A stretch of DNA of 64,000 bases from a bacterium (GTDB lineage Bacteria; Hinthialibacterota; Hinthialibacteria; Hinthialibacterales; Hinthialibacteraceae). The stretch lies in contig CAXXMV010000001.1 in NCBI GenBank assembly GCA_963662285.2, positions 96,001 to 160,000 of the forward strand, written 5' to 3'. The translations under genes were made by a program, and so were the position numbers. The notes beneath the pieces were generated by a model. The model saw only the letters and a list, made by a program, of their open reading frames with translations. It was not told where the DNA came from and did not search any database. Positions within the stretch are counted from its first letter, which is position 1. The number at the start of each line of letters is the position of its first letter. Positions 16,284-64,000 of this stretch are shown in pieces.

Positions 16284-17255
16284 TTATTCAATAGACCAAT
16301 CCGCCACAGCGGTTGGCTCTTCGCCAATAGCCCACTGTACGCAGCGTTGTAAAACTGCTTTGCCGGCAGGCGTCATATAATCCAGAACCACTACCCATTT
16401 CATTGGTTGTTCGGCTCCGTTAATAGGACGAACTTGTCCTCCACCGAAGAATGGCATTACCCTTCGGGCAGGAGCTGTTGTTCCATCAGAAAGTGCATCG
16501 CCCGCTTCAACTACGGCAAGAGCTGCCTTGGAAGGATCAGAAGTCCATACAGCCAGAACCTGGGTTCCTGAACCGGCGTTTGCGACTAAATCAGAAATTC
16601 CCTGCCATGCATCGCCTGGATTTTCTGGAGGTCCATCCGGGCCATCACCAAAAATAATGATTTCTTCTGGCAATCCTTTTGTCAAAGGATGAGTTTTACC
16701 AGCTTCGGTGAGCGTGATTGATTGTGCGCCTTCGCCACCCATGTCACCGCTTTGGTCGCCGCTAAAGATAAAAGTTGATCCCAGTTTGTTATCTCTGGAA
16801 CCGAGATTAGCATGTTCTCCCTGGATAACAGGTACAGGTACTTCTTTCAAAGCCGGGCCAATAGTTGACCAGCAGGTTCCTGTATTCCATATTAATGCAT
16901 ATCCTTCATCCTGGAAGAAAGTTGGATAAGCCATGTAGACGCCGTCATCCACCCAATTAAAATAATCGGCGTCATCACCAAGTGGAAATGGAACAAATCC
17001 TTCATTCATCATATATTGCACAACATAATCCGGCATGAGAATCGGGAAATATCCCCATTCTTGAGCAATGTATCTTAGAGTTTCGTCATCCATTGAAAAA
17101 TGAGGCATTACAGCGAAGTCTCTGTCAATTGTGTTGCCATCGCTGCCCGGCGCCCATGATATGCGTCCTGAAAGCGCAATTTTCTTGGGTTGCGCATCTG
17201 CAATAATTACGCTAAACGCCAAAAACAGAATGATAAAAGGCACTAGTTTTCTCAT
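16284..17255 (-). CDS. secreted hypothetical protein with C-terminal TAVADWSIE tail
   Basis: Signal peptide MRKLVPFIILFLAFSVIIADA, RBS GGGAG; family not recognised. Confidence 0.8.
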   Translation of the reverse strand: MRKLVPFIILFLAFSVIIADAQPKKIALSGRISWAPGSDGNTIDRDFAVMPHFSMDDETLRYIAQEWGYFPILMPDYVVQYMMNEGFVPFPLGDDADYFNWVDDGVYMAYPTFFQDEGYALIWNTGTCWSTIGPALKEVPVPVIQGEHANLGSRDNKLGSTFIFSGDQSGDMGGEGAQSITLTEAGKTHPLTKGLPEEIIIFGDGPDGPPENPGDAWQGISDLVANAGSGTQVLAVWTSDPSKAALAVVEAGDALSDGTTAPARRVMPFFGGGQVRPINGAEQPMKWVVVLDYMTPAGKAVLQRCVQWAIGEEPTAVADWSIE

Positions 17256-17393
17256 GATAATATTCTCCCTTTTTTATTTACTAAGATGATGTTTCAAGAA
17301 TTATTGTTGCATTAACTTTGTCGTTCTATTTATCTACATCTGTAAGCAAAAAACTTTTCTTTACCTCCTTTCAAATATTTTTTTAAAAATTCA

Positions 17394-18158
17394 TTAGGGA
17401 ATGATTACTTTTTCATCAAATTGTTCTTCAGATTCTTCATGAAATGCGTCCGAAAGCGTATTTCTGATATGATTCACCATGATGGTGATTGATTTCCCCG
17501 AATCCCGTTGAGCCAAGGCTTCTACAAGTTTCATGTGATCGGTCATATCTTTGCTGGTGGGCAATGTTCGATGATGGCCATCCAATGAGGATTCATTGAA
17601 ATATTCCACCAGAATTGCATGGAATTGCTCGGTGAATTCACAACCGGCGGCATTAAAGATTATTTGGTGGAACTCAACTTCCAGTTGGGCGATTTTCTCT
17701 TCAATTTCTCTTGTAATTGGTTGAGTTGAACTAAATAATTCCTGCATCTCTTCAGCCAGCTGACGCATGCGTTCTATCTGTTCATCTGTTGCCAGTTCTA
17801 TAGCTAAGGGAATCGATCCGATTTCCAATACAAACCGCAAATGACACAGCCTGTTCCAGGATTCTTTATCCCCGGCTATGGGCGCCAGAATTTTTTCGAT
17901 TTTATTAATGGCGTCGCCGTTGGTGACGCATAATCCCAGACCCTGCCGACTTTCAACGATGCCTAATCCCCGCAATTGCCCGATTGCTTCTCTGATTACA
18001 GTTCGAGATACCTTAAACTGAGCAGCTAACATCGCCTCGGTACCCAGTACAGTACCTGGCGTTTTATGCTTTTCCCGAATCCATTTGCTTAGGCGATTGG
18101 CAATCTCCGTGCTAAGGGCATTGCGGGAATGAAGTAAATCTCGAAGTTTTGATGTCAT
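17394..18158 (-). CDS. GntR/FadR-family transcriptional regulator (FCD domain)
   Basis: TEAMLAAQFKVSRTVIREA...GIVESRQGLG HTH; LRFVLE, EFHQII, DHMKLVEAL. Confidence 0.93.
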   Translation of the reverse strand: MTSKLRDLLHSRNALSTEIANRLSKWIREKHKTPGTVLGTEAMLAAQFKVSRTVIREAIGQLRGLGIVESRQGLGLCVTNGDAINKIEKILAPIAGDKESWNRLCHLRFVLEIGSIPLAIELATDEQIERMRQLAEEMQELFSSTQPITREIEEKIAQLEVEFHQIIFNAAGCEFTEQFHAILVEYFNESSLDGHHRTLPTSKDMTDHMKLVEALAQRDSGKSITIMVNHIRNTLSDAFHEESEEQFDEKVIIP

Positions 18159-19914: not shown

Positions 19915-20511
19915 CTATAATCCTACTAAAGCATCATCGCATGGATAAGACGATCTGGCGCCGAGTCTGATTAAATCACCCATACTGCTTAAACCATTGG
20001 AAACTTGATAGGTAACAGTGTTGCCCCATGTATTAGTGTAATCAGGACCAGCGCTGGTAACTTTATAGTCGCAGCAACGCGCCTGTGGAGGTAAAACAGT
20101 CAATTTACCAAAATTAATCCGGCTCCAGCCATCGGTATAGTCATAAGTTATATATGCGGCATCCTGCTCATCGTTCAGGCGTTGTCCGGGAGCGCCATAG
20201 AGAAACGGGTCTTGGGGAACGGTTGGCATATAAGAGACAGGAGTGGTTAAAGGAATAAGCCGTCGGTTAACCGGATTCTTTTGCACCCCGCTTGCATCAA
20301 GCCAAGGAGGGTAAATATTGTTATCGATTTTATAACTCTCAAGAGCAGTAGCGATAGTACGTAATTCGGATTCGGCTTTGGCAATCTTGGAACGAATCAT
20401 GGCATTGATGAAATTCGGTACCGCGATAGCAGCCAATATTCCAATGATTGCGACTACTATCAGCAATTCAATTAAGGTAAACGCTTGCTTCTTTTCAATA
20501 ATAGAAAACAT
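19915..20511 (-). CDS. prepilin-type N-methylation domain protein (GspG-like pseudopilin)
   Basis: AFTLIELLIVVAIIGILAAIAVPNF; LTTPVSY...DPF, SAGPD, Y.VSNGL.S.GD. Confidence 0.9.
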   Translation of the reverse strand: MFSIIEKKQAFTLIELLIVVAIIGILAAIAVPNFINAMIRSKIAKAESELRTIATALESYKIDNNIYPPWLDASGVQKNPVNRRLIPLTTPVSYMPTVPQDPFLYGAPGQRLNDEQDAAYITYDYTDGWSRINFGKLTVLPPQARCCDYKVTSAGPDYTNTWGNTVTYQVSNGLSSMGDLIRLGARSSYPCDDALVGL

Positions 20512-21601: not shown

Positions 21602-21860
21602 ATCATTTATCCTTTGGGAGAAATAGTAATTGATTGAAAAGATTATATATTCCTTTATCAATCCAACAAGGATATTTTTGAGAAACACTCTAACTGCAAT
21701 ATATAACGCTATTTTTTCATCACAACAAATGTTAGACTTTGACTTATGACAAATGTGCTAATAAACCAATTCCTCAGGAAATTTCTCCTTATGGAATTCA
21801 TGTAAAAATAGTGTAAATTTGTGTGAAACATTGGCAATTAACCATAACAAGGAGTTGAAA

Positions 21861-22463
21861 ATGAAAAGATATAGTTGCAAGGCATTTACCCTTATAGAGT
21901 TATTGATCGTCGTAGCCATTATCGGGATTCTGGCGGCCATTGCCGTACCCAATTTTTTGAATGCCCAGGTTCGGGCTAAAATCGCACGGGTTGATAGCGA
22001 CCTGCGCACCCTGGCGGTAGCCATGGACTCTTACCGTATTGACCGGGGCGCCTATCCACCTGACTGGATTGGCGCTGGAGGCGGCAGCGTTCAAGAAAAA
22101 GGTTTTATCCGGGCGATGTACAATTTAACCACCCCGGTAGCCTATCTTTCCAGCGTTGATCTTTCTGATCCGTTTTACACTGGCGCTGCAAAAAACGTTA
22201 CTTTCAATGGGGGCGGCTATGATCAAGCCACTTACCGCTACTTCTGCTATCGTTATGGTTGGGGAGACGCAGTCAATTATGTCAAAGATGGCTATGCCAT
22301 ACTCTCTTACGGCCCGGATAAAATTGAAAGTTATGGTGAATGGTGCGGCATCCCAAGGGGAAAAGGTTGGGATGGAATTTATAGTTCTTCCAATGGACTT
22401 CGCAGCATGGGCGATATTGTAAGGGCTGGCGGGGCGGTCAACGTAAATGGATGGCAGCAATAA
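21861..22463 (+). CDS. prepilin-type N-methylation domain protein (GspG-like pseudopilin)
   Basis: AFTLIELLIVVAIIGILAAIAVPNF; LTTPVAY...DPF, SYGPD, YSSSNGLRSMGD; RBS AAGGAG. Confidence 0.9.
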   Translation: MKRYSCKAFTLIELLIVVAIIGILAAIAVPNFLNAQVRAKIARVDSDLRTLAVAMDSYRIDRGAYPPDWIGAGGGSVQEKGFIRAMYNLTTPVAYLSSVDLSDPFYTGAAKNVTFNGGGYDQATYRYFCYRYGWGDAVNYVKDGYAILSYGPDKIESYGEWCGIPRGKGWDGIYSSSNGLRSMGDIVRAGGAVNVNGWQQ

Positions 22464-46477: not shown

Positions 46478-48238
46478 ATGACTGCTTTCAATCGTTATTT
46501 CATGCTATTAATACTATCACTCGTATCACTCGCGACGGCGATACAGACATACGGAGCGGGGGAAACGCCGCCGTTTCCGAAATACACTACAGTCGATTTG
46601 GGAGATTTCGAACCCATCGCGATTAATAATGTGGGGAATGCGATCGGAGCTATTCGCGATACCCAAACTAACGCCGTCAAATACGCATTTTGGAAACAAG
46701 GCGAAACTTTCGAAATAAAGGGCTTGAGCGGAGAAATGATCCAACTGAGGGATATCAACGATCTGGATCAGGTCGTTGGAGGAGATTACAAACTGTTCGA
46801 GGACGGCGCCAAGAAGTTTCACGCGTTTCTTTGGGAAAACGGCGCGACGACCGATCTACATCCCACCGAGTTGGAAGATAAATTCAATTTATATCTAAAC
46901 GATCCAGATTACATCGTTAAAACGGACGTAGCGATGCATAACAGCAGCGACGCGTGGGGGATCAACAATCAGGGCGCGATAGTTGGCTATTCCTTGGGCC
47001 AATTCACAGAGCCATTTTACGAACTCCTCTTCACCGACATAACGAACGATAATAAAGAGGTGAAACACATATCCATTAACTTACAAACTTTAATGGGAGC
47101 GATGTGGCAAAATGGAGAGCAACACGTTGTAGGATATCCGATGAAACAAGACGAGAACAATGTTTACCCATTTTACTTTTATCCCTATTGGTATCCAACG
47201 AGCATTAACGACTTGGGCGACGTAACGGGAAGGATGTTTTTCGGTCGAGGCGCGCCGCCGACGGATTGGACGCTTTTGAATCAAAAATATGCATTTGTTG
47301 TCAGGAACGGATCGATATCGATTTTGAAAGGCCCCGATGGAGAAGAAAGCGAAGGAGTAAAGATCAATAATTCAGGATACGTGCTGGGACATTACGATTC
47401 CAGCTTGGGAGAAGGGTACCGCGTTTGTTATTGGTATGACGGACGATGCGTCTCGTTGCACCAATCCTCGTGGCTAACCGAATATGCCTACGATATCAAC
47501 GACGCCACCCCGTCACCTCAAATCGTAGGATTTGCGATGGACCAAGAGGCAACGAATATGTTCGCCTTTCTGGCGCAAAACGATACTGTCATCAATCTGA
47601 ACGAATTGATCGACGCCGATTCGGGTTGGTATTTAGAAACGGCGCAATCGATCAACGATCAGGGGTGGATAGCCGGTTCGGGTATTTATCAAAACCAACG
47701 ACGGGGATTTCTCTTAAAACCAGAGTCCGGGCCTATATTTAAGATCGACAATAAGGGTAACGTTTTCGCGGATGGAACCTATCAAACGCCCGCCGCCGAT
47801 TTCGCCGAACGATGGCTGGTCAGTTCGTCCATCGATCCAACGGAATTGAGCGCCGGTCACGTTCTGTCTCTGAACTCCGATGGCGGCGTGCAATTAGCCC
47901 ATGCAAGGGAATCCATTGCGATTCTTGGAATCTATGCCTCAAAACCAGGATTGCTTGCGGGTTCGCCAAAATTGCCGACGAAATCAAACCGAGGCGCGGT
48001 GTACGTTCCGGTGGCAATGACAGGCATCGTCCCGGCCAAAGCCTGTTGTGAAAACGGTCCTATCATTCCGGGCGACTTGTTATCAATCAGTCGAGAGAAG
48101 CCAGGATATCTTGCTAAAAGCGTTCCGCAAACATTGGGGGAACTCGACTTTCATCCAGTGGGTTCGATTGTGGGGAAAGCGCTCGCTCCCCTGACGGAAG
48201 AAGAAGGGCTCATTCGAATCCTTCTCATCATGCCTTAG
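46478..48238 (+). CDS. secreted HAF-repeat protein with the same C-terminal ADFAE domain
   Basis: Repeats INN.G..VG, HAFLWENG, A..IND.G.I.G; C-terminal VFADGTYQTPAADFAE...IVGKAL. Confidence 0.85.
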   Translation: MTAFNRYFMLLILSLVSLATAIQTYGAGETPPFPKYTTVDLGDFEPIAINNVGNAIGAIRDTQTNAVKYAFWKQGETFEIKGLSGEMIQLRDINDLDQVVGGDYKLFEDGAKKFHAFLWENGATTDLHPTELEDKFNLYLNDPDYIVKTDVAMHNSSDAWGINNQGAIVGYSLGQFTEPFYELLFTDITNDNKEVKHISINLQTLMGAMWQNGEQHVVGYPMKQDENNVYPFYFYPYWYPTSINDLGDVTGRMFFGRGAPPTDWTLLNQKYAFVVRNGSISILKGPDGEESEGVKINNSGYVLGHYDSSLGEGYRVCYWYDGRCVSLHQSSWLTEYAYDINDATPSPQIVGFAMDQEATNMFAFLAQNDTVINLNELIDADSGWYLETAQSINDQGWIAGSGIYQNQRRGFLLKPESGPIFKIDNKGNVFADGTYQTPAADFAERWLVSSSIDPTELSAGHVLSLNSDGGVQLAHARESIAILGIYASKPGLLAGSPKLPTKSNRGAVYVPVAMTGIVPAKACCENGPIIPGDLLSISREKPGYLAKSVPQTLGELDFHPVGSIVGKALAPLTEEEGLIRILLIMP

Positions 48239-48250
48239 AGAGGTGGAAAG

Positions 48251-48523
48251 ATGAATCAATTGTGTAAATCCATTTTGGGATGCGTCTTGATTTTGGCTGT
48301 GTTGATTCCGTTGCTATCCTTCTCTGCGGAGTCATTCGATATACCGTTCTGGACTTTCCACTCCAACGCGGGAACATCCGAAGGGGGAGAATACAAAATC
48401 CAATCCACAATCGGTCAAACAGTGAGTGAGACATCGCGCGGAGGCTCGTTCGTCATCAAGGCGGGCGTTTTAGATTATTTTTCCGGTTTTGAAGTCGACG
48501 TGAGAGATTGGATGATTTATTAA
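48251..48523 (+). CDS. small secreted Gly-rich protein with VRDWMIY tail
   Basis: Signal peptide, RBS GAGG; motif F.I..WT....G.S.GG.Y...STIGQ....S.GG.F...G. Confidence 0.8.
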   Translation: MNQLCKSILGCVLILAVLIPLLSFSAESFDIPFWTFHSNAGTSEGGEYKIQSTIGQTVSETSRGGSFVIKAGVLDYFSGFEVDVRDWMIY

Positions 48524-49074: not shown

Positions 49075-52000
49075 ATGAATAACAAATCCTATGTTTTTTC
49101 AGTCTTTTTACTGTTGGTCATATTTTTCTTATTTCCTTCGTCCATTCTTTTGGCGCAGACTGGCCTATTAAAAGGCGATGTTACACGAGATGGAACAATC
49201 GACGGCCGGGATGCTTTACGCATCCTTCAACATATTGAAGGCGTTATTACCCTATCGGACGATCAGGTTCAGCAAGGCGATGTTTATCCATTGCCAGACG
49301 GTAATGGTGCATCCGGCGGCGATGGCATTTTGAGCCAGGATGATGCGCTAACTATTCTGCGAATCGGCGTTGGTTTAATCACTGCTGGAGACATATCGAA
49401 CAATTTTAACGAATCTCCTCCGGTCATCGATGATTTCGAACCCCAAAGCGCAATCTCCGGGGAAACAATAACCATCACAGGTTCGAATTTTCCCACAGCG
49501 CATCCAACGGAAACCATCTTATTGATCGGCAGCCTTCCCGTGGAGATTCTCTCCATCGAAAACAATGCTATAAAATTCCTGATTCCTGAAATAGCCCAAA
49601 GCGGGATTCTTCGCCTTTTTACTCCAGGGGGGGTCGCCGAAAGTTCCAACCCGTTATTCATCCTGACGGGAACGCCAGGCGTCCTGAAACTAGAAGAGAA
49701 TTCCAATCTCAAAGATTTCATGGTATTCACGCCTTATGACGCCGTGGAGATTGAAAATACAAACGGCTTATTTACGCTTCACTTACCACTGGATACGATG
49801 GTGCTTATCGGCGCGTCTTCCAGTGCGGAAAATCGACCGGGCATCTATCTTTACTTGCGTTTGCCTGATGAAGCGGCTTCGACTCAACCGTTTCAGATCG
49901 ATGAGTATTCCACCGCCAAAGCCCTGGTCTTTTTTCATCCCTTTTTATCAACGAGAGATACCAATAGCGCGCGCTACCTTTTTAATCTGATGGAGCAGAC
50001 GCCGGAAGTGCAGGCGCTGGCCGACACCATCGCGCAACGCTATCCCCTTGGAGCCGATGGCCTCGACGACCCGGAAGTTGGCACCGCATGGGAAAAGGCC
50101 GCTTCCGTAATACTGAACAAAGCCATCCAAAATCAAGCAGCCTTAGTGACGCAACAATCCGTATCCGTGAAATCCCCCCGGCGTGCAGCGTCGTATACAC
50201 AGTCCTCCAATATCGCTAACAAAATTAACTCTACGCCAGCTTTTCAAGATTCGGCCAAGATGGTTAAACCAATGGCCGAAGATTCCGGCGAACTACCAGT
50301 AAAAATTTATGGCATAGACGCCTTGTTTATCGCCCCGGAATACATCCCAGAAAAACACGGCATTAAGATGAAACTGGATAATTACAGCCCGATCGATTGG
50401 GTATCCACCCTATACCGTCTGGATACCAACGATATGCCGCGCGGCATCAACGAGTCGTTTCTCGGCATGAGAAACCGGGGCGTTCGCACGACGGGGTACG
50501 AAATATCCACTGTCGTGCCCGCCAATCAATGGACGGCTAAAATCGATCTGTTGTATTTCGCCGTCGATTGGTCGATTAATTCGATCCTGGAAAAATTCGT
50601 GGAAGGGGGAAACGTCCTTCCGCTTGAAGAAGGCGCCTTTAACCGCTTGGAAGACAGCGTGTATCTTCTTCATTCGTTCAGTGGATCGCTCTACACGGGC
50701 CTCGAACATGAAAAACCGGATTTCAAGGCCATCCAAGCGCTTAATACAGGAAATACGATGGCCCTCTATTCCACCTCTATAAACATCACGATCGCCGCCG
50801 TCGATCTCTGGGATCTGCTTACCGGCGAATCCAAGCGTTGGACGCGCGCCGCCATGAAAAAAGGCATTCAAAACGCCGTTCGTAAAATCTCACAACGGCT
50901 TTCCAATGTGTCTTTGGAAACAGTAACAGCTAGTGATATTATCGGAATACTTTTAGAAGGAACCGTTGAAGCCGTCAAAGGCGGTCTTACCTCGGCTCCC
51001 CAGGGCTTAATCACCTGGAGTCATAAAAAACTGGGTGAAGAAGCAGAGGAAAAACTTAAGCAAGCCCAAGGCAAATTACAAAAATCATGCTTGCAATGCA
51101 TGAGCCGCGCCAATGCCGTACTTGGAGCGTTGGACAAAATATCGTCATTCGGCCGCGTCGCCGAGCGGCTTCTGGGATTGATTGGCCGCTTGATCAACGT
51201 CTACGATTTCGAACTGTCCGAAGCTGTTTCGCCGCTCGAATCCCATCTCATTGTTGTCGGCGATCCCTTCAGTCCCTCGGCCTATTCCATGGCGCCCACC
51301 GAAGGCGCACCCGGTACAGAAGTTACCATTCTGGGCTATCTCTTCGCCTCCAAACCCGAAGACAACACTGTTCTGTTCGGCAATAGAGAAGCCAAAGTTT
51401 TATCGGTTGATAAAAGAGAAAAACTAGTGGTGGAGGTTCCTCAAGGCCTGAATTACAACTACGAACAGCAAATCAGCATTGAAACTCCCGCAATGATGAA
51501 AGCGGCCATCGTACCTCAAAAATTCAAGATAAAACGAATTCCCTACATTACATCTGTAACCCCCCTTCGAGTCTTCTCATCTGTTGCCAATGATGATCCC
51601 GGTCCCTTTGCCGGAATGTTTTCCTCCATCTCAATCAAAGGTTCGGGTCTTAGATCGACCACCGAAACGCCCGATAGAGTCTTTCTGGACGATCTGGAAT
51701 TGACGAATCTATACATAACGGCCAATGAGATACAGGCTACGCTTCCGCCGAATCTGCCATCGAAAAACTACCTGGTTACCATTGTTTCTCCCGACAACGA
51801 CGATTATCGAGCTATAGGTCCCTATATCGATATCATGGGCAAACCGGTAGCGCAAAAACTTTCACCCGCCGAAGCCAGAGCCGGACAATACATCACCATC
51901 ACCGGCTATGACTTTGGCTCCACAACCATCGCCGTCAAAGTAGGCGGCGTTCTCTCACCGGAAATCAAGAAAGTCAGTGATACCGAGGTCATCTTTCGCA

Positions 52001-55000
52001 TGCCCACTGTGGGGAAGGAAGGCGAATCCCTGTCGGTCGTCGTAATCACTCCAGCCGGAACCAGCGGCAATCTTTCCATCAAACGCGCGGCGGGTTACGA
52101 AGATACTCTCGCACCTGGCACTGAACGCTTTATTATTAACGTGAATTCTTACAAAAGCGGCGTCGACGCCGACGGCGAATTGACCCTGGATGAAGCCGCA
52201 AACATCGCACGAGGCGATATCGATCCTTTTGCGCCTCCCTGGGACGATAAAAACGAAATCTGGACGCACAACTTTTTTCAGGTTAAACGATACGATGATC
52301 AAGGCAACCCTTATTATATCTGGGAAGAAGGTGATATCGAAAAAGAAATGAAAGCCGGTGGTCTCGGCTTGGAACAAATCGAACATTACCGCATCGATCG
52401 TTATCACATGGATAATGGGGGAACTAAATCCGACAAATATTTCGTAAAAACAGAATCGCTTGACGAGGAAGGCTCTAAGGAAGAGGGCGATTTTGTCTCT
52501 TCTCTGTATACGGGCGAGTATTCCGGTGGACAAGGTTACGCTGACAGGATTCAGATTTCCGACGATATAGACGGAAACAGTACTTTTCATGCGGTTGACC
52601 TGGTCCTTACCGACTACGACTCCTTGATTTTGCCTCACGAATCCCTGCTCTCCCTGGGAGGCCGTGGCATTCAAATTACCAAAGGAAGCCTAATTGATAT
52701 CGGTAAGGTCGTGTGTGAAACTGGTGACGCTCTCACCATCACGGGCATAAAGAATGACGTTAATCTTCATATCCTGAATTCCGGCGCCAACGGAATCATT
52801 ATGCAAGAGGCGGTCGGCAACACAATCCGTGGAGAAGTTGAAAATTGCAAAGAGTATGGCGTAAAGGTTGAAAAAGGCGGAGACAACCGTATTTTCGCCG
52901 ATATCCGCAATGCTGGGAAACACGGTATTTTACTCGACCGCAGCAACCAAAACCGGATTGGAACGTCTTTCGATAAACAGATCATCGAAGGTTGCGGTTC
53001 ACATGGCATCTATATCAAAGAATCCAACCAGACAAGAATCAGCGAGACCGTCGTCTCTGAAAACCAGGGAGACGGTATCGTGCTGGAGAATAGTTCGCTT
53101 TGCGAATTCTACAGTTTACAACTTGCGGGCAACAACAGCGGCTTAGTTTTGTTTGGCCCCAATACCGTCAATAATACCATTTCTTCCGTCTATATCGGTT
53201 ACATCGACTCAAATCTCAAAGACAACCAGACAAAGAAACTGATAAAAATGCACAATCAATACGGAGTGCATCTTTATGGAAAAGCTTCGTCTAATACCTT
53301 GAGCGGCATCAATATCTTTCAGACGGGCGATCATGGCATGTTGATAGAAGACGATGGAACCACCTTGAACTCATTTAACCATTGCTCTGTCGGGATGCCA
53401 TCAGAATGGCTCTCTCTTCTTAATGGCGATGCAATCCAATGGCCAGCCGCCAGCGCCGCAGATGGTCTGGTAGTTCAGAAAGGCGCTAAACAAAACCGCT
53501 TTTATCGAGTAGATATCAATCACCAAACCGGCAACGGCATAGTGTTGAAAGACGCAGGTACAGATAACAATGTCTTCGACAGCCTGCAAATTGGACTATA
53601 CATGGAATCAAATAAGGCCAACAAAAATTTATTTAAAAACGGCGGCTGGGGCGCCGTTGTCAAAGAAGGACCGCTAAACACACTCTTTACCAACTGTTAC
53701 GGCGGGTATAACGAAAAAGGCGGTTTCCAGGTCGATTCCAACCAAATCGATGCACCGGTCGATGCGCACAACACCACCTTCACGTTTTGCTATGCCGGTT
53801 ATACGATGGATGACAACTATAAACCCAAATATTACGTCGAAGGTCTTCCCACTGGGGTTGGATTCGATCTTCTAAATTGTTCGAATGTCTTTGTGGATCG
53901 ATGCAATTCGTGGGGCTATCAATACGGTCTGTCCATTTCCGGCGCCCTGTCCGTCAATAATGACATCTGGTCTGGTCTATACCGCGACGCCGCCGATGCG
54001 GGCATCCTGGCATTTCAACTGACCAGTCCCAACCGGATCGCGAATTCCAGTTTCATGGAATGCAGCAAAGTCGGGATTCTTGTGAAAGAGTGCAGCGATC
54101 AAACTCTGTTGATGTGCCGTTCGTCGGGATTTAACGCCCTCAAGGATAACAGCGTCAATCTTCGAATTGAAAAATCGCAGAACATTCGCGTTGAAGACGC
54201 CAGTTTCGGAAACACCCTGCTGAACGGCGTCGAAATTGATAATTCCAATACCATTTCTTTTCTCGATCTCTGGACGAGTCAAGCCGGGAATCATGGCGTG
54301 ATGATTACGGGAGAATCCCGAAAAATCTCACTAGAGAATTGCACCGTCAACGAGAATTACGGCGACGGACTACATGTTGTCTCCTCCCAGGATATAACAT
54401 TTCTTTCGGGACGCATCGATCGAAACGGTTTGTCCGGTATTTCGTTCGAGAATGTGACTAATGCGCAGATTGTAGACGCAGAGATTAATCAGAATTCCAA
54501 CCACGGTATTACTATTTCCGGCGAAAACACCGAAAACATTTCAGTGCGTGGTTCTTCCATTGCAAGCAATACCTTGAATGGGATATACGCTCTGCAAGGC
54601 AAGGGAATTCACATTGGCGACGCTTTAACCGGTTCTGAGCAGAAAAACTATTTTGAATGCAACGAAGCTGCGGGAATTTACGCGGAAGGAAACGGGACGC
54701 AAATCTCTATCGTGAATAATAAAATCGGATCCGGCCGCTACTCTTCCTCGTACAGTTATAGTTCCGGCAATAAAACAGGAATCGTTCTAGCGAAAGGAAT
54801 CCAATCAACCCTCATCCAGAACAACACCATCACGAAGAATACGGGCGAAGGAATTATACTTCGGGAAGGAGCCAACCGCCATTATATCGTGAATAACGAT
54901 ATCCAACAAAATGGAGGACACGGCGTACTGGTTGACGGATCTGATACCATCCGCAACACCATCACGATGAACTCCATTTCCGAAAATGGGGGAAAAGGCA

Positions 55001-57060
55001 TCGCACTCGTCAACGGCGGTAACGAATCGCTTCAAGCCCCCATTATCGATAAAGTCACCTGGATGGGTGAAAACATCTGGGGCGACGCGTCCGTCCCGGA
55101 TGGAAGCTCCATCGAAGTATATTTCGATCCCGATGACGAAGGACTGTTTGTCGCTGGCGTTGGAAAGGTTTTCAAGGATCGTTTCAACGTGGCGGGCGGG
55201 TACGATCCATCCATGAAACTGCACGGCATCGTCATCGATCCCAGTGGCAACACCTCAGAGTTCGGCCCTACCGATATCCAACCGGAACGATCCGATTCTT
55301 TCGTCTATACCGCCGAACAGAATGGCGGCAAGGATATCTATTATAAACCAAGCGGAAACGAATTACCCATCCAATTGACTACCCATCCTGCGGCGGATTA
55401 CTCGCCCTTCGCTTCCAGCGACGGTTCATCCATCCTCTTCGTTTCAGAACGACAGGGGAATCCCGATCTATGGCTGTACAATACCAAAAATGGCGAAGAA
55501 AGTCCGCTCACCACTTCCACCGCCGCAGAAATCGATCCGTACCTGGAACCGGATGGCGAGAATTTATTGTACGCTTCAAATGAAAGCGGAAAATTCAATA
55601 TTTATCGGATGCCTTTATCCAGCAATGGCTCAGGCAACTCAGTCGCATTCACAGATGGCCCCATAGATAGCGGCATCGCCGCGCTGAAAGATTCTCAATA
55701 CGCCATTCGCATCCTGACCGAAAAAGCAGGCGTGCTGGATAAAATCTCGTTCTTCATTCAAGGCGATCCCGCTCCCTTTGCCTGGATGGTAACCGATTGG
55801 AATGTTTCCGAACCCGGCGAAACTGTTTTTGCCGAAGATATTGCATCGCCAAACGAAACCGGTTGGTTTGAGATCGATATCGAAGACCTTTCTCTTCCCG
55901 CCGATTTCGCTATCCATGTCAAAATGCTCGAAGATAACAAACCAGTGTTGGGGAAAGCGCCGGCTGCGATGGGCATGTTCTCCTGGACTTATTTTCTCTC
56001 TTCCTTGGATTCCTGGAACACCTTAGGCATGGAAATCATGCTCCGGGCCGATTTCTTGTCTTCTGAACCTCCGCGATTAACCCAAAACGATGGAGACAAT
56101 CGGCAACCCGCTGTATCGCCGGAAGGAAACGAAATCGCATACTCTTCCAATAGCGCAGGTTCTTTCGATATTTGGATCATGGATTCTAACGGTTTGAATC
56201 CCCGCAAAATCACCGATGGCAAGGGTAGTAATACACATCCTGTATGGACTTCCGACAGTGAGAAAATCGTCTTCGCTTCTGATCGGGACGGTCAATCCGA
56301 TCTGTATCAAATCAACGCCGACGGCAGTGGTTTAATCCGCTTAACCCAGAACCAAGGCTTCGACGGTGATCCGGCATGGAGCCTCGATGGCAAACGGATT
56401 CTCTTCACTTCCGATCGGGATGCAGGAGCGGAAATTTACTCGATGATATCAGGAGAAACCCGCATCGAACGCCTGACGTTTTCGATCGACGGAGTAAGTC
56501 AACCCCATGCCGCGCCCTCGATTACGATAGTTACAGTGAATACAAAGTCGATGATCGTATCAAAGGCCGCTGCAACGGACGAAAATCTGCTGAATCCAAT
56601 GAGCGCACCGACCGAACTCTACTTAGAAGTCTCTCCCGCTAAAGCCAAACCCGGCGAGACCGTCAAACTTTCCATTCAGGCCGTCAATGCTGAAAAACTT
56701 GGGAATGTCGCATTCGATGTGAGATTCGATCCCGATTTATTGAACCTGTCTAAAATGACGCTGAGTTCAACATTCCAATCCGGTTCGCTTCATGTCATGA
56801 ACCCGGAATCTCTGTCTGATGTCAATGGTATATTGCGATGGAACTGGATTCATTCCTTTGGCGCTTCGGGTGATCCCGAAATAATGTCACTGGAATTCGA
56901 AATCGATGGCAATGCGGATAGTGAAACTACTTATGTTAAGATATCCAATGCGCATTGGTTCAACGCAGATATATATCCTTTGGATATTCAACCGGCCAGT
57001 ATCCAGGTTGTTATCGAAAAAGAAGAAACGTCTATCGAGCAATGGTTTCTCTATGAATAA
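49075..57060 (+). CDS. giant secreted multidomain protein: dockerin, IPT/TIG, parallel beta-helix, PD40/TolB-like propeller, cohesin
   Basis: GDVTRDGTIDGRDAL (dockerin); PGTEVTILG/GQYITITG (IPT); N.G.GI repeats; P.WS.DG..I.F.SDRDG; AKPGETVKLSI...FDVRFDP (cohesin); tail TSIEQWFLYE. Confidence 0.9.
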   Translation: MNNKSYVFSVFLLLVIFFLFPSSILLAQTGLLKGDVTRDGTIDGRDALRILQHIEGVITLSDDQVQQGDVYPLPDGNGASGGDGILSQDDALTILRIGVGLITAGDISNNFNESPPVIDDFEPQSAISGETITITGSNFPTAHPTETILLIGSLPVEILSIENNAIKFLIPEIAQSGILRLFTPGGVAESSNPLFILTGTPGVLKLEENSNLKDFMVFTPYDAVEIENTNGLFTLHLPLDTMVLIGASSSAENRPGIYLYLRLPDEAASTQPFQIDEYSTAKALVFFHPFLSTRDTNSARYLFNLMEQTPEVQALADTIAQRYPLGADGLDDPEVGTAWEKAASVILNKAIQNQAALVTQQSVSVKSPRRAASYTQSSNIANKINSTPAFQDSAKMVKPMAEDSGELPVKIYGIDALFIAPEYIPEKHGIKMKLDNYSPIDWVSTLYRLDTNDMPRGINESFLGMRNRGVRTTGYEISTVVPANQWTAKIDLLYFAVDWSINSILEKFVEGGNVLPLEEGAFNRLEDSVYLLHSFSGSLYTGLEHEKPDFKAIQALNTGNTMALYSTSINITIAAVDLWDLLTGESKRWTRAAMKKGIQNAVRKISQRLSNVSLETVTASDIIGILLEGTVEAVKGGLTSAPQGLITWSHKKLGEEAEEKLKQAQGKLQKSCLQCMSRANAVLGALDKISSFGRVAERLLGLIGRLINVYDFELSEAVSPLESHLIVVGDPFSPSAYSMAPTEGAPGTEVTILGYLFASKPEDNTVLFGNREAKVLSVDKREKLVVEVPQGLNYNYEQQISIETPAMMKAAIVPQKFKIKRIPYITSVTPLRVFSSVANDDPGPFAGMFSSISIKGSGLRSTTETPDRVFLDDLELTNLYITANEIQATLPPNLPSKNYLVTIVSPDNDDYRAIGPYIDIMGKPVAQKLSPAEARAGQYITITGYDFGSTTIAVKVGGVLSPEIKKVSDTEVIFRMPTVGKEGESLSVVVITPAGTSGNLSIKRAAGYEDTLAPGTERFIINVNSYKSGVDADGELTLDEAANIARGDIDPFAPPWDDKNEIWTHNFFQVKRYDDQGNPYYIWEEGDIEKEMKAGGLGLEQIEHYRIDRYHMDNGGTKSDKYFVKTESLDEEGSKEEGDFVSSLYTGEYSGGQGYADRIQISDDIDGNSTFHAVDLVLTDYDSLILPHESLLSLGGRGIQITKGSLIDIGKVVCETGDALTITGIKNDVNLHILNSGANGIIMQEAVGNTIRGEVENCKEYGVKVEKGGDNRIFADIRNAGKHGILLDRSNQNRIGTSFDKQIIEGCGSHGIYIKESNQTRISETVVSENQGDGIVLENSSLCEFYSLQLAGNNSGLVLFGPNTVNNTISSVYIGYIDSNLKDNQTKKLIKMHNQYGVHLYGKASSNTLSGINIFQTGDHGMLIEDDGTTLNSFNHCSVGMPSEWLSLLNGDAIQWPAASAADGLVVQKGAKQNRFYRVDINHQTGNGIVLKDAGTDNNVFDSLQIGLYMESNKANKNLFKNGGWGAVVKEGPLNTLFTNCYGGYNEKGGFQVDSNQIDAPVDAHNTTFTFCYAGYTMDDNYKPKYYVEGLPTGVGFDLLNCSNVFVDRCNSWGYQYGLSISGALSVNNDIWSGLYRDAADAGILAFQLTSPNRIANSSFMECSKVGILVKECSDQTLLMCRSSGFNALKDNSVNLRIEKSQNIRVEDASFGNTLLNGVEIDNSNTISFLDLWTSQAGNHGVMITGESRKISLENCTVNENYGDGLHVVSSQDITFLSGRIDRNGLSGISFENVTNAQIVDAEINQNSNHGITISGENTENISVRGSSIASNTLNGIYALQGKGIHIGDALTGSEQKNYFECNEAAGIYAEGNGTQISIVNNKIGSGRYSSSYSYSSGNKTGIVLAKGIQSTLIQNNTITKNTGEGIILREGANRHYIVNNDIQQNGGHGVLVDGSDTIRNTITMNSISENGGKGIALVNGGNESLQAPIIDKVTWMGENIWGDASVPDGSSIEVYFDPDDEGLFVAGVGKVFKDRFNVAGGYDPSMKLHGIVIDPSGNTSEFGPTDIQPERSDSFVYTAEQNGGKDIYYKPSGNELPIQLTTHPAADYSPFASSDGSSILFVSERQGNPDLWLYNTKNGEESPLTTSTAAEIDPYLEPDGENLLYASNESGKFNIYRMPLSSNGSGNSVAFTDGPIDSGIAALKDSQYAIRILTEKAGVLDKISFFIQGDPAPFAWMVTDWNVSEPGETVFAEDIASPNETGWFEIDIEDLSLPADFAIHVKMLEDNKPVLGKAPAAMGMFSWTYFLSSLDSWNTLGMEIMLRADFLSSEPPRLTQNDGDNRQPAVSPEGNEIAYSSNSAGSFDIWIMDSNGLNPRKITDGKGSNTHPVWTSDSEKIVFASDRDGQSDLYQINADGSGLIRLTQNQGFDGDPAWSLDGKRILFTSDRDAGAEIYSMISGETRIERLTFSIDGVSQPHAAPSITIVTVNTKSMIVSKAAATDENLLNPMSAPTELYLEVSPAKAKPGETVKLSIQAVNAEKLGNVAFDVRFDPDLLNLSKMTLSSTFQSGSLHVMNPESLSDVNGILRWNWIHSFGASGDPEIMSLEFEIDGNADSETTYVKISNAHWFNADIYPLDIQPASIQVVIEKEETSIEQWFLYE

Positions 57061-58235: not shown

Positions 58236-61200
58236 TTAATACAACATCCAAGAATTCACACTTGTTTCATTCCCGCTAATTGTGATAACTGCATCTTTTG
58301 CAATTACAGATACGGGCGTTAAATTCACACTGTATGCTTCTGCGTTATTGATAGAAACTACCGTGTCAGGATGAATCGTTTTTTCGTTAATCATGAAATT
58401 CAAACGGATTTCCGAGAGGTCTGACGTCAATCCTTCCGCGCCAATCCAATTCAACCGTACGGGTGTTAAGTGAGCCGGATAATCGGGCGGATTGATTTCA
58501 TAAAGAGAATGTTCCGTTTGAAATTCCAGCGATGGAGATTCAACAAGACTGAGAATAACGGGATTATAGGCAATTTCCAAATCTAAATTACCGAGGGATT
58601 GAGCCCCGATTAATTGAAGAAGAATTTCCGCCACCGATCCCGGTTTGGCTTCCGCATCCATCATTTGCAAAGCGATCTCACCTACTGTCAGCGGTTCCAA
58701 TACGCTCATGGTTTGAGTTGTTTTTGTCAGCATGGGTTTGTTGGGAATCCGATTTTCCAGACTCTGAGCTTCAAATGCACCCGTTTCGGGATATCGCGCA
58801 TCCAATGTTCCGATCGTCACACGATGGGGAACGGGATTGTAAACGTTCAACGAATTGATTTCATAATTCCCCAAGCGGTTCGTTGAATAGAGTATGCGGT
58901 CGCCGCTCTGGCTCCATCCCGGATCCGTGTCATCCGCTTCATTCTGAGTCAATCGAACGGCGTCGCCGCCATCCACGTTCATCATGTAGATTTCCGGGTT
59001 TCCATCTCGATCCGATACAAAACCGATCTTCGAGCCTTGTGGAGACCAGGAAGGCTGACGGCTGTTGCCATTGCCCTGGGTGAGGTTGATAAGATTGCTG
59101 CCATCCGTATTCATCAGCCAGATGTCCTCATTCCCCGCCCGGGTGGAAGTAAAAGCGACCGTATTCCCGTCTGGAGAAATGGCCGGATACCGGTCGATGC
59201 CGGGATCATTGGTAAGCCGCGTTGGACCCGCAGGTGCAGGATCTACAGCAATGGCCTTCATCATGACGTACTGAGCGAACGATTTGGATAAATTCCATTG
59301 ATCGAAATTCTCAAAATACCGGTGCATCCAGGTATGCCCCTCTTCGCCAGCGCTGGCGATTCCCAACTGAGGTTTGTAATCTTCCTCAAAATAAATCATG
59401 ACAATATATTGCTCGGGCACTTGCAATTCCCCAACGCTGATCGTGTGCCAGCCTGTCTCCGTGATATTCTCTTCACCTTCCGCGAGTATTTCATCCGGCT
59501 TGGCTTGCCAATTCGCATACGGGAAGATTTTCCACCGGATGGGCGCTGGATCGGCGGAAATGTATACCTGAAATTCAGTAAGCAATTCCGGTCCATAATT
59601 AAACTGAGTTCCCAGGCCATTCCCCATCGTATCAGACCGCGCGTAAATCTCGGCGTTGGGATCGTCTCCTCCGCTAAAATAAGAAAGTACGATACTGTCC
59701 CCGCCTTCTCCTCCACCGGATTCCGAAACGGCTTGCATGTAAATTTCGGGATTCCCATCCCGGTCTGAAACAAAAAGAAAATGATCGCCGTCCGCCATCC
59801 AAACGGGATCGTAATCGGGCGCCGTATTGTTCGTGAGCGAAGTGAGATCGAACGAATCCAATGTCAAATGCCAGATATCTGGATTGCCGCTCCGGCTGGA
59901 AACAAACAATACGTTATTCTGATCTTCGGATAGGCTTGGATCGTAATCTTTCGCGGGATCGTTCGTAATCCGCGCGGGACGTTTCAGCGTATCGTTGTAC
60001 AAATACAGATCGGTATTTCCGCCTGACGTTTCCGAGAATAGGAATGGATCGGTTTTGATATCGATAACGGTAGGCCCAAACTCAGATGTGTTGCCGTCAG
60101 GATGAGTGATGGTAGCATGGTATTTCATCCCTTTCGGGACAAATCCTTGGCAGATAAATTTCTTGCCAAACAGCATTCCAAGCCCAATCAGGATTTCTCC
60201 TTCATCATCCATATCGGCAAACACTTCGACAATGCTTCCATCGGGCGCGTCTTGGTTTACTTTTCCAAACACCTGGCGTTGTTGACGCTCGACTTTGGTA
60301 ATGATCGGAGACTCGACCATGTCGTTGCCCCCGTTCAGCCGAATCCCCGCTCCATCGTTGTTGTATATGCTGTTTTGCGAGATATGATTAAACCGGGAAG
60401 CCGCTCCTTCAACATGGATGCCATTCTCTCCATTCGACTTGATTCGATTTCTCGTAATCGAGTTCGTGTTGGCGCCATCTCTGATGTAAATGCCATGACG
60501 CTTATTCAAGAGAAAAAGATTGCCTTGAATCAGATTGTGCTTTGCGCCTTGCTCTAAGACCACTCCGTCCTGATTTCCCCAGGAGGCCATGGGATCTTTT
60601 TCATACCGTGCGGGAACGCCAATCGCGTTCCCTAGAATGCGGACTCTTGTATTCTCTCCCTGAACGAGAACGCCTGCGTTGTCGTTCATCTCGATGTAAT
60701 TGCCCCACTTATCATTGTTCGAGCCGATGGTGATATCCTGTCCTCCCTGAATCAAGCAAGCGGCTTCGTTTTCCGAGCGGTGAATATTGCAATTTATCAC
60801 TTGTACGTTTCTGGTTTGATCGCCGGTAATCCATAGACTTGTTCCTCCACCGGATAACGAGCCTCCCAAGCCGTTTTCGCCCATGATAATGTCCTGGCAA
60901 TTATCGATTTTAATACAGCCTTCTTCATTTTGGTTCATTTGGAATCCCCATTTAAAGTTCAAAGAACGTGATTCACCGATGAGTTCGACGTTCTTGGAAT
61001 TCTCCATCCAAATTCCCCAGGCTAGACTCTTCACGATTTCAAACATATCGAATACGAAATTCTTACAACCATTCAAAACGAAACCGTTTTGATCACTTTC
61101 GGATACCCAGAAATCCTTGAAATTGACCGTATCGCAATTGACCGCCCGAACTCCGTCTTTCCCATTGCGAGAAATATAGGCGTTTGTTACGCTGATATTT

Positions 61201-64000
61201 TTACAATCTTCCATATACAGGCCGTATCCATCATTGCCGCCAGTGGAATTGTTCCAGAAGTTATATAAAGGAAGCAATTCCGACAAGAATTCCGCGTTTT
61301 CTATATTCGATAAGTGAATGCCATCATCACCCGCGCCATTAACCGTAAACAGTTCAATATGGAAACCATCCGTATTTGTGACGTATAGCCCTTTCCCTTC
61401 CGGGAAATACACATAGGTATTATCAAAACGCAGTGATTCGTTGTTGCCGACAATCTTTATCCCGTCTTCATGAAGAAAGGTGAAGATAGTATCAAACTCT
61501 GCATATTTAACGTTCTCGCATTCAATCGCCGATCCACCGGTTTTGGTTCTTTTTGTTAACCGGACCTCTGATTTTTGCAAGTTCGTGCCGATCTTGCAAT
61601 TCCGCATGAGGATCGAAATGTTCTCTTCAGAGTAATCGGAACTGTCCAAATTCCGAATTAACACGCCGCCCTCTGCGTTGTAACCCAAGGTGCACGAATT
61701 GATGTAGGTTCCGACAGCGTTGTTGGTTATGATGATTCCCCGACCCTTGTTATACCAGGCTATATCATCATCCTCATTATACACACGCCCGATCCAGCAT
61801 TCTTCAATGATGGTCTCTACACCGCCGTCGATGTAAATCCCATTGTTGACCGTTGAAATTTCAGAATCCCGAATAACTGTTTCACTGGCTCCATTTTCAA
61901 TATGGATGCCGTCACCTGTCATTGTATTGACAAAATCCAGGTCAAAATCTTTCTTGTAATCCATATCCGTTATTCTGTTCCCGGTTGTGTTAGGGCCGGA
62001 AATCAGAATTGCATGACCTTTGTTCAACGAGGCTATGAATCCGTTGATGGAATTGTGGGATGCGCCATTCATCAGCACTAAACCGTGCCCGTTGCCCATA
62101 GGACTTCCATTACCCTCAACTTCCATCCATTCAAAAATATTTTGCGCGTTGCCTTCTCCGCTTAAAACAATACCGTTTTTATCGTTGTTCCTTACATGAA
62201 CACTCGTAAACCGGTTGCCTCCCGATTCGTCTTCCATCAAAAAACCATTCTTTTTATTTCCTTCCACAATGACGCTTTCAAAAACATTGCCGTCTCCATT
62301 CACTATGTGGATGCCTTCTCCTCCGTTATTCATAACATGGATATTTTCAAATTTATGAAATCCTCCGCCAGTCAAATCGATTCCATTTTCACGGCAGTTC
62401 CGGATGCCGTGTTCGTCATCAATACTGGAAAGCGTGATATTTTCGGAATTCGTCCCATAAATTCCGTTCTGGCAGGAATCGATTGACAGGCGCAGCGTAA
62501 TAGCCTGAATGTCCTCCAGTGTTACGCCATTCCCGCTGCACTTAGAGATTGAATTATAAATGTTGATATTGTTTTGCTGGCTGCTGGTAATTCGGACTCC
62601 ATCGCCATTTGCGTCTTGAATCTTTTCCACGGAAATTTCATTCAGACCGCCGTTCTTGATATCAATGGCGTGACCCGGTGAATTAAGTATTGTATCTACC
62701 GTAACCTTCGCGCCAATCGCATCCTGCAACAGAATCTGAGCGTTTTCCACTGTTGCGGCGGAAATGGATGAACTATTTCCTAACTCAATGGAACCTTCCA
62801 TCTGTATTGAACCGGTTTTCATCAAACCCATGGGGATTTTTATAGCGCCAGTAACTTGAAGGCTCGATTTCCTGTCGATCTCGATTTCATCCTGGGGACC
62901 CAATTCAAATCCTGGACTGCGTATGGCATGTTCTCCTTGGATAGATATCCGTTCCCGTTTTTCGGCTGAAGGAATGCCCGAAAACCGGTCGCCTTCTTCC
63001 CGGTCGTCATCGGTTGCATCTTTCGATTCTGTTCGAATATTGGTCCGGGAGATTTCATTTCCTTGTTCGTCTCTGAGGACTTTCTCATATACTCTATATT
63101 CTAAGCCCACTCCGCCCGGAGACCGACTCGATCTATCTCCAACCTTGACTTCGACATAGTAATAGATGGGATTGTGATCGTCATCGTACCGGACGCGCCT
63201 TTCATTCTCCCAGATTTCTTCATGCAGTTCGTTGTCGTCGTCCCACCCATCAAGAAAAGGATTCGCCTCACCTTTTGCGAACATCACCGCCTCCGCGAGA
63301 GAAAGATGGCCATTTTTTACGATTCCATTCGTATAATCGGTTACGGTGATTCCACTTCCGGATGGCAGTCTTTCATAATCGGGACGCTCCAAACCCGGTT
63401 CCCGGATGATTTGCGTCCGGGCGGAACCACTCGGCGTCCAGATCGTGATTGGGACCGGCTCATTCTCCTCCCCCGATCCATTCATTTCGACGATAATTCG
63501 ATTCACAAACGTCTGGTAAACGGTTGCAAAATAATCCCCGATCATCACTTTGGCGTTGAGCAGATTATCACCGGCTATTTCAAAACGCTGTCCTTCTTTC
63601 GCTCGCTCCGCGGATAATCGGCTAATTTCAGGTTGGTCGAAAATATGGAAGGTCAGTTCGTTGCTCCTCTCGCCAGTATTTGGATTGAGAACATGTACCG
63701 GTACGTCTCCCCTCAGGCCTTCATGAACGTAGGAATACATCAGGTGATCATATCGACCGATTGTGTCTGTTTGACGCCAATCAAAAAACACCTCGTAAGG
63801 TTCTTCATCCGCGTCTTCTTGAAAGTTCATGCCTTCAATGCTGACCAGAGTTGAATCTTCATCATAAAATGGATTATCCGGATCGGTGGGTTTTGAATAT
63901 CCCCAATTGGGTTCGAGACGGCTAATAATGGGCTGGGCAGTTACATAAAACCGTTCACTGGCCGTCGCCCCGCTAGACGCCGCCGTCGTCTCTAAGCGGA
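58236..64000 (-). CDS. giant secreted multidomain protein, paralogue of 49075-57060; 5' end lies beyond the window
   Basis: Frame stays open from 63830 to 64000 (RLETTAASSGATASERFYVTAQPIISRLEP...). Same IPT, beta-helix, GNTSEFGPT, PD40, cohesin order; tail TSVNSWMLY. Confidence 0.9.
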   Translation of the reverse strand, partial: RLETTAASSGATASERFYVTAQPIISRLEPNWGYSKPTDPDNPFYDEDSTLVSIEGMNFQEDADEEPYEVFFDWRQTDTIGRYDHLMYSYVHEGLRGDVPVHVLNPNTGERSNELTFHIFDQPEISRLSAERAKEGQRFEIAGDNLLNAKVMIGDYFATVYQTFVNRIIVEMNGSGEENEPVPITIWTPSGSARTQIIREPGLERPDYERLPSGSGITVTDYTNGIVKNGHLSLAEAVMFAKGEANPFLDGWDDDNELHEEIWENERRVRYDDDHNPIYYYVEVKVGDRSSRSPGGVGLEYRVYEKVLRDEQGNEISRTNIRTESKDATDDDREEGDRFSGIPSAEKRERISIQGEHAIRSPGFELGPQDEIEIDRKSSLQVTGAIKIPMGLMKTGSIQMEGSIELGNSSSISAATVENAQILLQDAIGAKVTVDTILNSPGHAIDIKNGGLNEISVEKIQDANGDGVRITSSQQNNINIYNSISKCSGNGVTLEDIQAITLRLSIDSCQNGIYGTNSENITLSSIDDEHGIRNCRENGIDLTGGGFHKFENIHVMNNGGEGIHIVNGDGNVFESVIVEGNKKNGFLMEDESGGNRFTSVHVRNNDKNGIVLSGEGNAQNIFEWMEVEGNGSPMGNGHGLVLMNGASHNSINGFIASLNKGHAILISGPNTTGNRITDMDYKKDFDLDFVNTMTGDGIHIENGASETVIRDSEISTVNNGIYIDGGVETIIEECWIGRVYNEDDDIAWYNKGRGIIITNNAVGTYINSCTLGYNAEGGVLIRNLDSSDYSEENISILMRNCKIGTNLQKSEVRLTKRTKTGGSAIECENVKYAEFDTIFTFLHEDGIKIVGNNESLRFDNTYVYFPEGKGLYVTNTDGFHIELFTVNGAGDDGIHLSNIENAEFLSELLPLYNFWNNSTGGNDGYGLYMEDCKNISVTNAYISRNGKDGVRAVNCDTVNFKDFWVSESDQNGFVLNGCKNFVFDMFEIVKSLAWGIWMENSKNVELIGESRSLNFKWGFQMNQNEEGCIKIDNCQDIIMGENGLGGSLSGGGTSLWITGDQTRNVQVINCNIHRSENEAACLIQGGQDITIGSNNDKWGNYIEMNDNAGVLVQGENTRVRILGNAIGVPARYEKDPMASWGNQDGVVLEQGAKHNLIQGNLFLLNKRHGIYIRDGANTNSITRNRIKSNGENGIHVEGAASRFNHISQNSIYNNDGAGIRLNGGNDMVESPIITKVERQQRQVFGKVNQDAPDGSIVEVFADMDDEGEILIGLGMLFGKKFICQGFVPKGMKYHATITHPDGNTSEFGPTVIDIKTDPFLFSETSGGNTDLYLYNDTLKRPARITNDPAKDYDPSLSEDQNNVLFVSSRSGNPDIWHLTLDSFDLTSLTNNTAPDYDPVWMADGDHFLFVSDRDGNPEIYMQAVSESGGGEGGDSIVLSYFSGGDDPNAEIYARSDTMGNGLGTQFNYGPELLTEFQVYISADPAPIRWKIFPYANWQAKPDEILAEGEENITETGWHTISVGELQVPEQYIVMIYFEEDYKPQLGIASAGEEGHTWMHRYFENFDQWNLSKSFAQYVMMKAIAVDPAPAGPTRLTNDPGIDRYPAISPDGNTVAFTSTRAGNEDIWLMNTDGSNLINLTQGNGNSRQPSWSPQGSKIGFVSDRDGNPEIYMMNVDGGDAVRLTQNEADDTDPGWSQSGDRILYSTNRLGNYEINSLNVYNPVPHRVTIGTLDARYPETGAFEAQSLENRIPNKPMLTKTTQTMSVLEPLTVGEIALQMMDAEAKPGSVAEILLQLIGAQSLGNLDLEIAYNPVILSLVESPSLEFQTEHSLYEINPPDYPAHLTPVRLNWIGAEGLTSDLSEIRLNFMINEKTIHPDTVVSINNAEAYSVNLTPVSVIAKDAVITISGNETSVNSWMLY

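Follow-up and report, generated by a model that had tools for sequence, protein, structure and literature searches.

The closest described counterpart of the signal reported here is the type A C-terminal domain (CTD; TIGR04183/PF18962) of the secretion system of type IX (T9SS), which lacks a transmembrane (TM) segment, is carried by many unrelated Sec-exported proteins of surface type and is served by the C25 peptidase PorU (NF033707; PDB entry 6ZA2). This domain is a beta-sandwich of 40-80 residues, the shortest published examples being 40-55 amino acids (aa) in length according to the available text of PMC11969387, and sorting of the PorU type has so far been regarded as bound up with the T9SS and with such a folded CTD. 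Here we describe a tail of approximately 10 residues, built around a tryptophan, that ends four exported proteins encoded in a 64,000-nucleotide stretch of a Hinthialibacterota genome (assembly GCA_963662285.2, contig CAXXMV010000001.1, positions 96,001 to 160,000; the whole stretch is hereafter called the window). The tail works like T9SS-type sorting, with which it shares its lack of a TM segment, its many unrelated Sec-exported carriers, a cleavage-junction motif (T, then a small residue and V/I) and the occurrence, in each of the genomes examined, of a PorU-like C25 peptidase whose His/Cys are intact, yet it is not a member of that system.

A second group of counterparts comprises the tripartite signals, namely LPXTG/sortase, PEP-CTERM/exosortase, GlyGly-CTERM/rhombosortase and MYXO-CTERM. 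The tail resembles these in being short, in marking many targets (dozens to hundreds), in its lineage-wide occurrence and in having a dedicated peptidase, here a candidate one. Unlike them, it has neither a TM helix nor a basic cluster, and for that reason would not be processable in the inner membrane. A regular expression search for tails of the tripartite types in the genome studied (G000) returned none.

The preliminary description of the window had proposed the motif [VI]-x-x-W-x-[LI]-[YE] from four C-termini, all of which are real and read exactly as given there. The ORFs of the whole genome (7.29 Mb, 92.5% complete) were called anew, and the strict pattern ended 74 of 5,159 open reading frames (ORFs) of at least 100 aa, with no occurrence at any of six internal pseudo-termini and one among 22,880 shadow ORFs. 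An iterated position-specific scoring matrix (PSSM) retrieved 182 of 5,419 ORFs of at least 80 aa (0-1 at eight pseudo-termini; 2 of 6,428 shadow ORFs), and another 20 ORFs, with none in the controls, had F or Y in place of W. The total is about 200 tail-bearing proteins, mostly unrelated, the 182 forming 102 sequence groups, of which 84 have a single member. Across the genome ORF set tryptophan occurred 244 times at position -4, compared with approximately 70 at positions farther upstream. Only the four named proteins reached the tail score among the 38 ORFs of the window, and the CarB, KdsB, GntR and extracytoplasmic function (ECF) sigma factor proteins, whose identities were confirmed, have no tail, as had been stated.

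The consensus of the tail is P-T-[SAPDNG]-[VI]-x-[DNE]-W-[SEM]-[LI]-[YFH]-COOH, with the tryptophan at -4 in 147 and at -5 in 34 of the 182 sequences. The core of the motif as first proposed was retained, whilst its terminal [LI]-[YE] proved variable and the motif was found to reach upstream as P-T-small. This was evident in the 28 orthologues of the 323-aa window protein, of which 25 kept [VI]-x-x-[WF] plus 3-4 residues and one kept [LI][YEF]; here the P-T-[AP]-V-x-x-W core was stable and the last three residues variable.

The tail was strongly enriched among exported proteins, being present on 169 of 2,418 ORFs with a signal peptide called by a heuristic that over-calls (it flags CarB, for example) and on 13 of 3,001 ORFs without one (Fisher p 4e-45). 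By eye, four of these 13 have a missed signal and the others look partial. Sec-type signal peptides had previously been noted on the three window proteins with visible N-termini, and the fourth, when its full gene was retrieved (2,717 aa), likewise opens with a signal-peptide-like stretch. Pfam matches were obtained for 28 of 53 tail proteins scanned, picked for lying in clusters, and were mostly to domains of extracellular type, including LamG, CBM9, CotH with LTD, FG-GAP, beta-helix, subtilase and an MtrC-like cytochrome. Tail proteins are also poor in Lys and rich in Asp, and from its sequence the cargo looks extracellular. We are highly confident that the tail is a sorting or docking signal of some kind.

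As Y or F is the last residue of 114 of the 182 tails, and the tail is short, it bears a likeness to the beta-signal of the BAM machinery. A role as such a signal, or as the last strand of a barrel targeted to the outer membrane, is nonetheless largely excluded. The beta-signal register consists of alternating hydrophobic residues at -1, -3 and -5 that end a beta-barrel, an alternation seen in 16 barrel-like proteins (1.0 at -5 and 0.06 at -2, with -1 and -3 being the selection criteria), whereas in the tails it is positions -1, -2, -4 and -7 that are hydrophobic, with polar residues at -3 (0.24) and -5 (0.07). The terminal aromatic residue is, furthermore, dispensable in orthologues, and the cargo proteins are not barrels.

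The taxonomic range of the tail takes in the Hinthialibacterota and the Sumerlaeota. That the window belongs to the former phylum (OLB16) is indicated by a conserved protein of the genome, whose close homologues bear the name Candidatus Hinthialibacter (74% identity). A DNA pattern for the tail, noisy in the Hinthialibacterota in that TGG was counted as a 'stop', was found in 35 of 35 genomes of this phylum; it stood well clear of the control in most of them, and by a narrow margin in three (G027, G029 and G030). The pattern was also common across 69 Sumerlaeota genomes, and those lacking it often have spacing variants, such as the tails with longer V-to-W spacing in G102 and G106. A collection scan retrieved 33 loci, 20 of them at the end of a long ORF (12 titled Sumerlaeota, two Omnitrophota including one OLB16, and six 'bacterium'), whilst the other 13 originated from other taxa and were not so placed. 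When 23 tail fragments were compared with Pfam and NCBIfam no model was matched, nor did the whole proteins match a sorting model of either database. The proposal of a lineage-specific secretion or surface-anchoring signal is therefore supported, in that the tail is neither equally frequent in cytoplasmic proteins nor matched by a known sorting-signal model. No description of it was found in the literature searched, which did not extend to subscription journals and supplements (such as annotation tables); the available main text of the Hinthialibacterota description (PMC9324843) contains no occurrence of 'C-terminal', 'secretion' or 'sortase'.

Homologues of the 90-aa window protein reveal what replaces the tail in other lineages. 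A full HMMER search retrieved 43 besides the protein itself at E<=0.001, a few of them spurious, in which the small domain was constant and the part following it varied. Most ended in [YF]LPL[IV]xx, and other replacements were a small domain ending in xFRL, a dockerin-like repeat, P-T-A-V-T followed by a TM segment and KRR, and another W tail. Judged from these sequences, the tail is positionally exchangeable with other lineage-specific C-terminal tags, that is, it behaves as a tag. This exchange with tags of anchoring type makes it very unlikely that the tail serves as a degron or marks substrates of a periplasmic C-terminal processing (PDZ/S41) protease; such proteases do read short hydrophobic C-termini, but the tail is borne by large adhesin-like proteins and contains a PorU-like junction, as set out below. 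The dockerin-like replacement, together with the cohesin- and dockerin-like domains of the window giants, would instead suit a non-covalent docking strand that inserts into a shared surface or periplasmic scaffold in the manner of a minimal dockerin. We consider this quite unlikely, as no multi-copy scaffold was identified and the strict C-terminal position of the tryptophan points to a role for a free carboxylate end or for processing.

The short [YF]-L-P-[LI]-[IVL]-x-[RK] tail was present on many homologues, some of them named Anaerolineae, including PorU-like C25 proteins (proteins P0035-P0074 and P0117-P0195). In a scan of 16 proteins it was covered by no NCBIfam model, and it may be a sister tag. 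Separately, at least eight large exported proteins (G000:C8:1017932-1054799 and paralogues) have a different common C-terminal domain of approximately 170 aa that ends ...YPG.LF..., which is possibly a second sorting signal; a FadL/BamG-like barrel (L013) is encoded directly downstream of one member of this family.

The upstream half of the tail was compared with the PorU cleavage junction. PorU sites mapped by experiment are given as X/(GSA)(VLI) for Porphyromonas gingivalis in the available text of PMC4560394, and as PT/GI for Prevotella intermedia in that of PMC11969387. A PSSM was built from the first six columns of the tail only, the published site sequences not being used, and was run over 32 residues around the CTD start for 52 of the approximately 150 CTD matches of one Bacteroidota genome (those in the stretches fetched). 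Its score peaked at -13 to -16 before the start of the CTD model in 38 of the 52, with a median of 5.2 compared with 3.2 in 500 composition-preserving shuffles (maximum 4.97), and 23 of the 52 scored at least 6 against a shuffle maximum of 16. In the tails themselves the position P2' at the putative cut is V/I/L in 174 of 182, P1' is G/S/A in 89 and P1 is T in 113. The preliminary description had set the tail apart from the T9SS CTD; it is indeed far shorter, but not wholly unlike, for its first half agrees with the junction at which the CTD is cleaved.

Two C25 peptidases are encoded in the genome, at G000:C8:485880-491375 (1,831 aa) and G000:C2:500515-504318 (1,267 aa), with PF01364 scores of 245 and 226 bits. 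Both have a signal peptide, an intact GHG...C dyad and CARDB domains, and neither has a tail; the catalytic His and Cys (H853 and C892) showed no variation in alignments of 21 and 30 rows. Every one of the 35 Hinthialibacterota and of the 69 Sumerlaeota genomes had PF01364 matches, mostly size-conserved paralogues, compared with none of 14 control genomes. The longer enzyme aligned to positions 5-743 of the PorU model NF033707, whilst two cargo-like C25 proteins with full catalytic matches aligned only from approximately position 350, and its sole PDB match was PorU (6ZA2). None of 41 close homologues of this enzyme bears the tail, which fits resident machinery. Several glycosyltransferase genes neighbour the C25 genes in the 20 stretches from 12 genomes that were surveyed.

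The model that we favour, and to which we give roughly even chances by analogy with PorU, is that the tail is a C-terminal sorting signal cut after Thr/Ser by a resident PorU-like C25 transpeptidase, the protein then being linked to a surface glycan. The receptor that the preliminary description had left unnamed would thereby be narrowed to a candidate, the PorU-like C25 peptidase. Cargo would be exported through Sec with a cleavable signal peptide, as the heuristic predictions and the observed enrichment suggest, and the W-x-L-Y end, at its fixed distance from the C-terminus, would be read by the sorting machinery, as its conservation implies. The outer membrane would be crossed without a T9SS, probably via a secretin machine resembling those of type II secretion or type IV pili; such machines are present, their use here being putative. 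If the analogy with PorU holds, one of the two C25 peptidases would then cut the T|small-V/I junction and the same enzyme would link the protein through an amide to an acceptor with an amino sugar, for instance lipopolysaccharide (LPS), which the presence of KdsB in the window indicates.

Core components of the T9SS were not found. SprA_N (PF14349) was absent from 27 of 27 genomes of the two phyla but present in three of three Bacteroidota controls, and CTD matches (TIGR04183) numbered zero in G000 and G101 compared with 16, 53 and 150 in three Bacteroidota genomes. GldM (of the PorL/M motor) and PorP (TIGR03517, PF11751) were found in none of three genomes compared with two of two controls, PorK, PorL and PorN lying outside the search. 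Secretins, by comparison, gave eight matches in G000, which has several Gsp-like gene clusters and a very large pilin or pseudopilin repertoire: the N-methylation motif of type IV pilins occurs in 115 ORFs (in the window, for instance, 19915-20511 and 21819-22463), none of which bears the tail. A 1,057-aa secretin (L060; G000:C8:420422-423595, - strand) has an N-terminal tetratricopeptide repeat (TPR) region and is a candidate reader of C-terminal peptides, and an 879-aa PilB/GspE ATPase (L047; G000:C2:31651-34290, - strand) is fused to an N-terminal exported TPR region with one predicted TM segment. Another protein (L012; G000:C3:327247-331306) is cohesin/dockerin-like, has a long linker rich in PT and is encoded directly upstream of a PorV-like barrel (NF033709, 60 bits), an arrangement that recalls the pairing of type B CTDs with PorP.

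TPR domains typically bind free C-terminal peptides that have a fixed register. It is hence conceivable, though on balance unlikely, that the tail stays uncleaved and serves a type II or type IV-pilus-like machine as a recognition tag, read for example by the TPR region of the secretin or of the ATPase fusion, and that the C25 peptidases do something else. The existence of both TPR proteins, the secretin and pilin repertoire and the lack of T9SS core matches would all agree with this. It leaves unexplained, however, why P-T-small-V/I, the part that matches the PorU junction, is the best conserved whilst the last three residues drift, and matches to the N-terminal region of the fusion in the Sumerlaeota were weak, for the most part partial, and uninformative. 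Recognition of this kind and the favoured C25 model are not mutually exclusive.

Several observations weigh against cleavage and anchoring by a C25 enzyme. Six-column scores in windows inside the CTD were intermediate (median 3.9, at least 6 in 15 of 52), and for this reason the junction likeness is real but modest; PT/S-V linkers are moreover of low complexity, and in the available text of PMC4804311 the cleavage of RgpB by PorU is called sequence-independent. Scores of the two C25 peptidases to NF033707 (232 and 193 bits) are below the cut-off of 420, and unlike PorU they have no tag or CTD of their own and have added CARDB and carbohydrate-binding module (CBM)-like domains. Nor were they sister to PorU in a careful tree, in which the housekeeping paralogues of the two phyla grouped weakly (78/98) and apart from PorU plus the cargo-like C25 proteins; a single clade of the long enzymes, seen in a quick tree, was gone in the careful one. 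C25 proteins are common in lineages without the tail (Anaerolineae, Planctomycetia, Poribacteria and Calditrichaeota), where they have their own lineage tags, and their presence is therefore not specific to the tail. No tail-free genome within either phylum was available as a negative control, and no conserved secretion operon was found near the C25 genes in the stretches surveyed. As the C25 enzymes are tail-less, the tail would not account for their own passage to the surface, and their site of action may be the periplasm. Periplasmic-binding-protein domains occur on two tail proteins, and FadL-like barrels match the PorV model NF033709 weakly (60, 45 and 20 bits, the cut-off being 90).

A last point on this side concerns the 350-residue extension in which the longer C25 enzyme ends, present in most Hinthialibacterota and in 46 of 69 Sumerlaeota. 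By DNA pattern the tail was found in 44 of 46 Sumerlaeota genomes with the extension compared with five of 23 without it, genomes that as kin are not independent. This co-distribution was rejected as evidence because it is confounded: extension-less genomes still carry variant W tails, and a reporter protein ended in a W tail in all six such genomes with a complete ORF (G040, G043, G044, G049, G055 and G106). The long enzyme of G086 is interrupted by a contig end. The extension tracks the canonical V-to-W spacing only. A fold predicted earlier from eight sequences was poor (predicted local distance difference test, pLDDT, 54), whilst the later model (pLDDT 84) contains a jelly roll like CBM35 (Z 10.9, root-mean-square deviation 3.1, 118 aligned), a likeness of fold that would fit an extension holding the glycan acceptor. 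Foldseek returned no clear match.

Coordinates of the four window proteins and their tails are collected in Table 1. The two giants had been described as paralogues, and are 28% identical over their length.

Table 1. Tail-bearing proteins of the window and the positions of their tails
Feature	Position	Strand	Remarks
323-aa exported protein, tail-bearing, without Pfam family	16284..17255	-	28 homologues
Tail PTAVADWSIE (C-terminus EPTAVADWSIE)	16287..16316	-	PSSM 21.6 bits; predicted cut after T, by likeness to the PorU junction
90-aa exported protein with small Gly-rich domain; other C-terminal tags on this domain in other lineages	48251..48523	+	
Tail EVDVRDWMIY	48491..48520	+	PSSM 23.9 bits
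2,661-aa exported protein with dockerin-like, TIG, right-handed beta-helix, PD40 propeller and cohesin-like domains	49075..57060	+	
Tail ETSIEQWFLYE (protein C-terminus EETSIEQWFLYE)	57025..57057	+	PSSM 18.6 bits
C-terminal 1,920 aa of 2,717-aa paralogue of the 2,661-aa protein	58236..64000	-	Gene start beyond window, at G000:C1:162389
Tail ETSVNSWMLY (C-terminus NETSVNSWMLY)	58239..58268	-	PSSM 27.3 bits

Just upstream of the tail-bearing 90-aa gene are two adjacent genes for exported proteins (43944-46424 and 46478-48238, + strand) that have a common C-terminal domain of approximately 100 aa (E 5e-14); no further ORF in the genome has this domain, and both proteins are without the W tail. 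Elsewhere in the window lies a three-gene island of low GC content (33.5%; 11727-13826, - strand). Its genes are an acidic precursor-like ORF of 104 aa in which the motif [TS]KT[LI]T..[RQ]E is repeated, a peptide maturase of the ATP-grasp type that matches TIGR04187 below the cut-off (223 bits), and an ORF of 294 aa without a match. From its gene content this island looks like a graspetide (omega-ester peptide) cluster.

Put together, and with somewhat less than even confidence, the two uncultured phyla would possess a PorU-type sortase system without a T9SS, in which the CTD has been reduced to a cleavage site and a four-residue W-x-L-Y end, exit is type II-like, and C25 transpeptidases with a built-in glycan-binding module anchor approximately 3-4% of the proteome, [YF]LPL[IV] and other short tags maybe being sister signals. 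If those short tags are sister signals, C25 'sortases' would form a widespread, T9SS-independent class of sorting enzymes. Should the pairing of the tail with PorU-like enzymes hold, the attachment module could stand alone, in phyla without SprA, and the tail would be the shortest bacterial covalent-anchoring tag known to us. Even without the link to the enzyme, the tail appears undescribed in the papers searched. It provides a rule, usable at once, by which the surface proteomes of two whole phyla can be annotated, whilst the pairing of tail and C25 peptidase is possibly a new tool for protein ligation.

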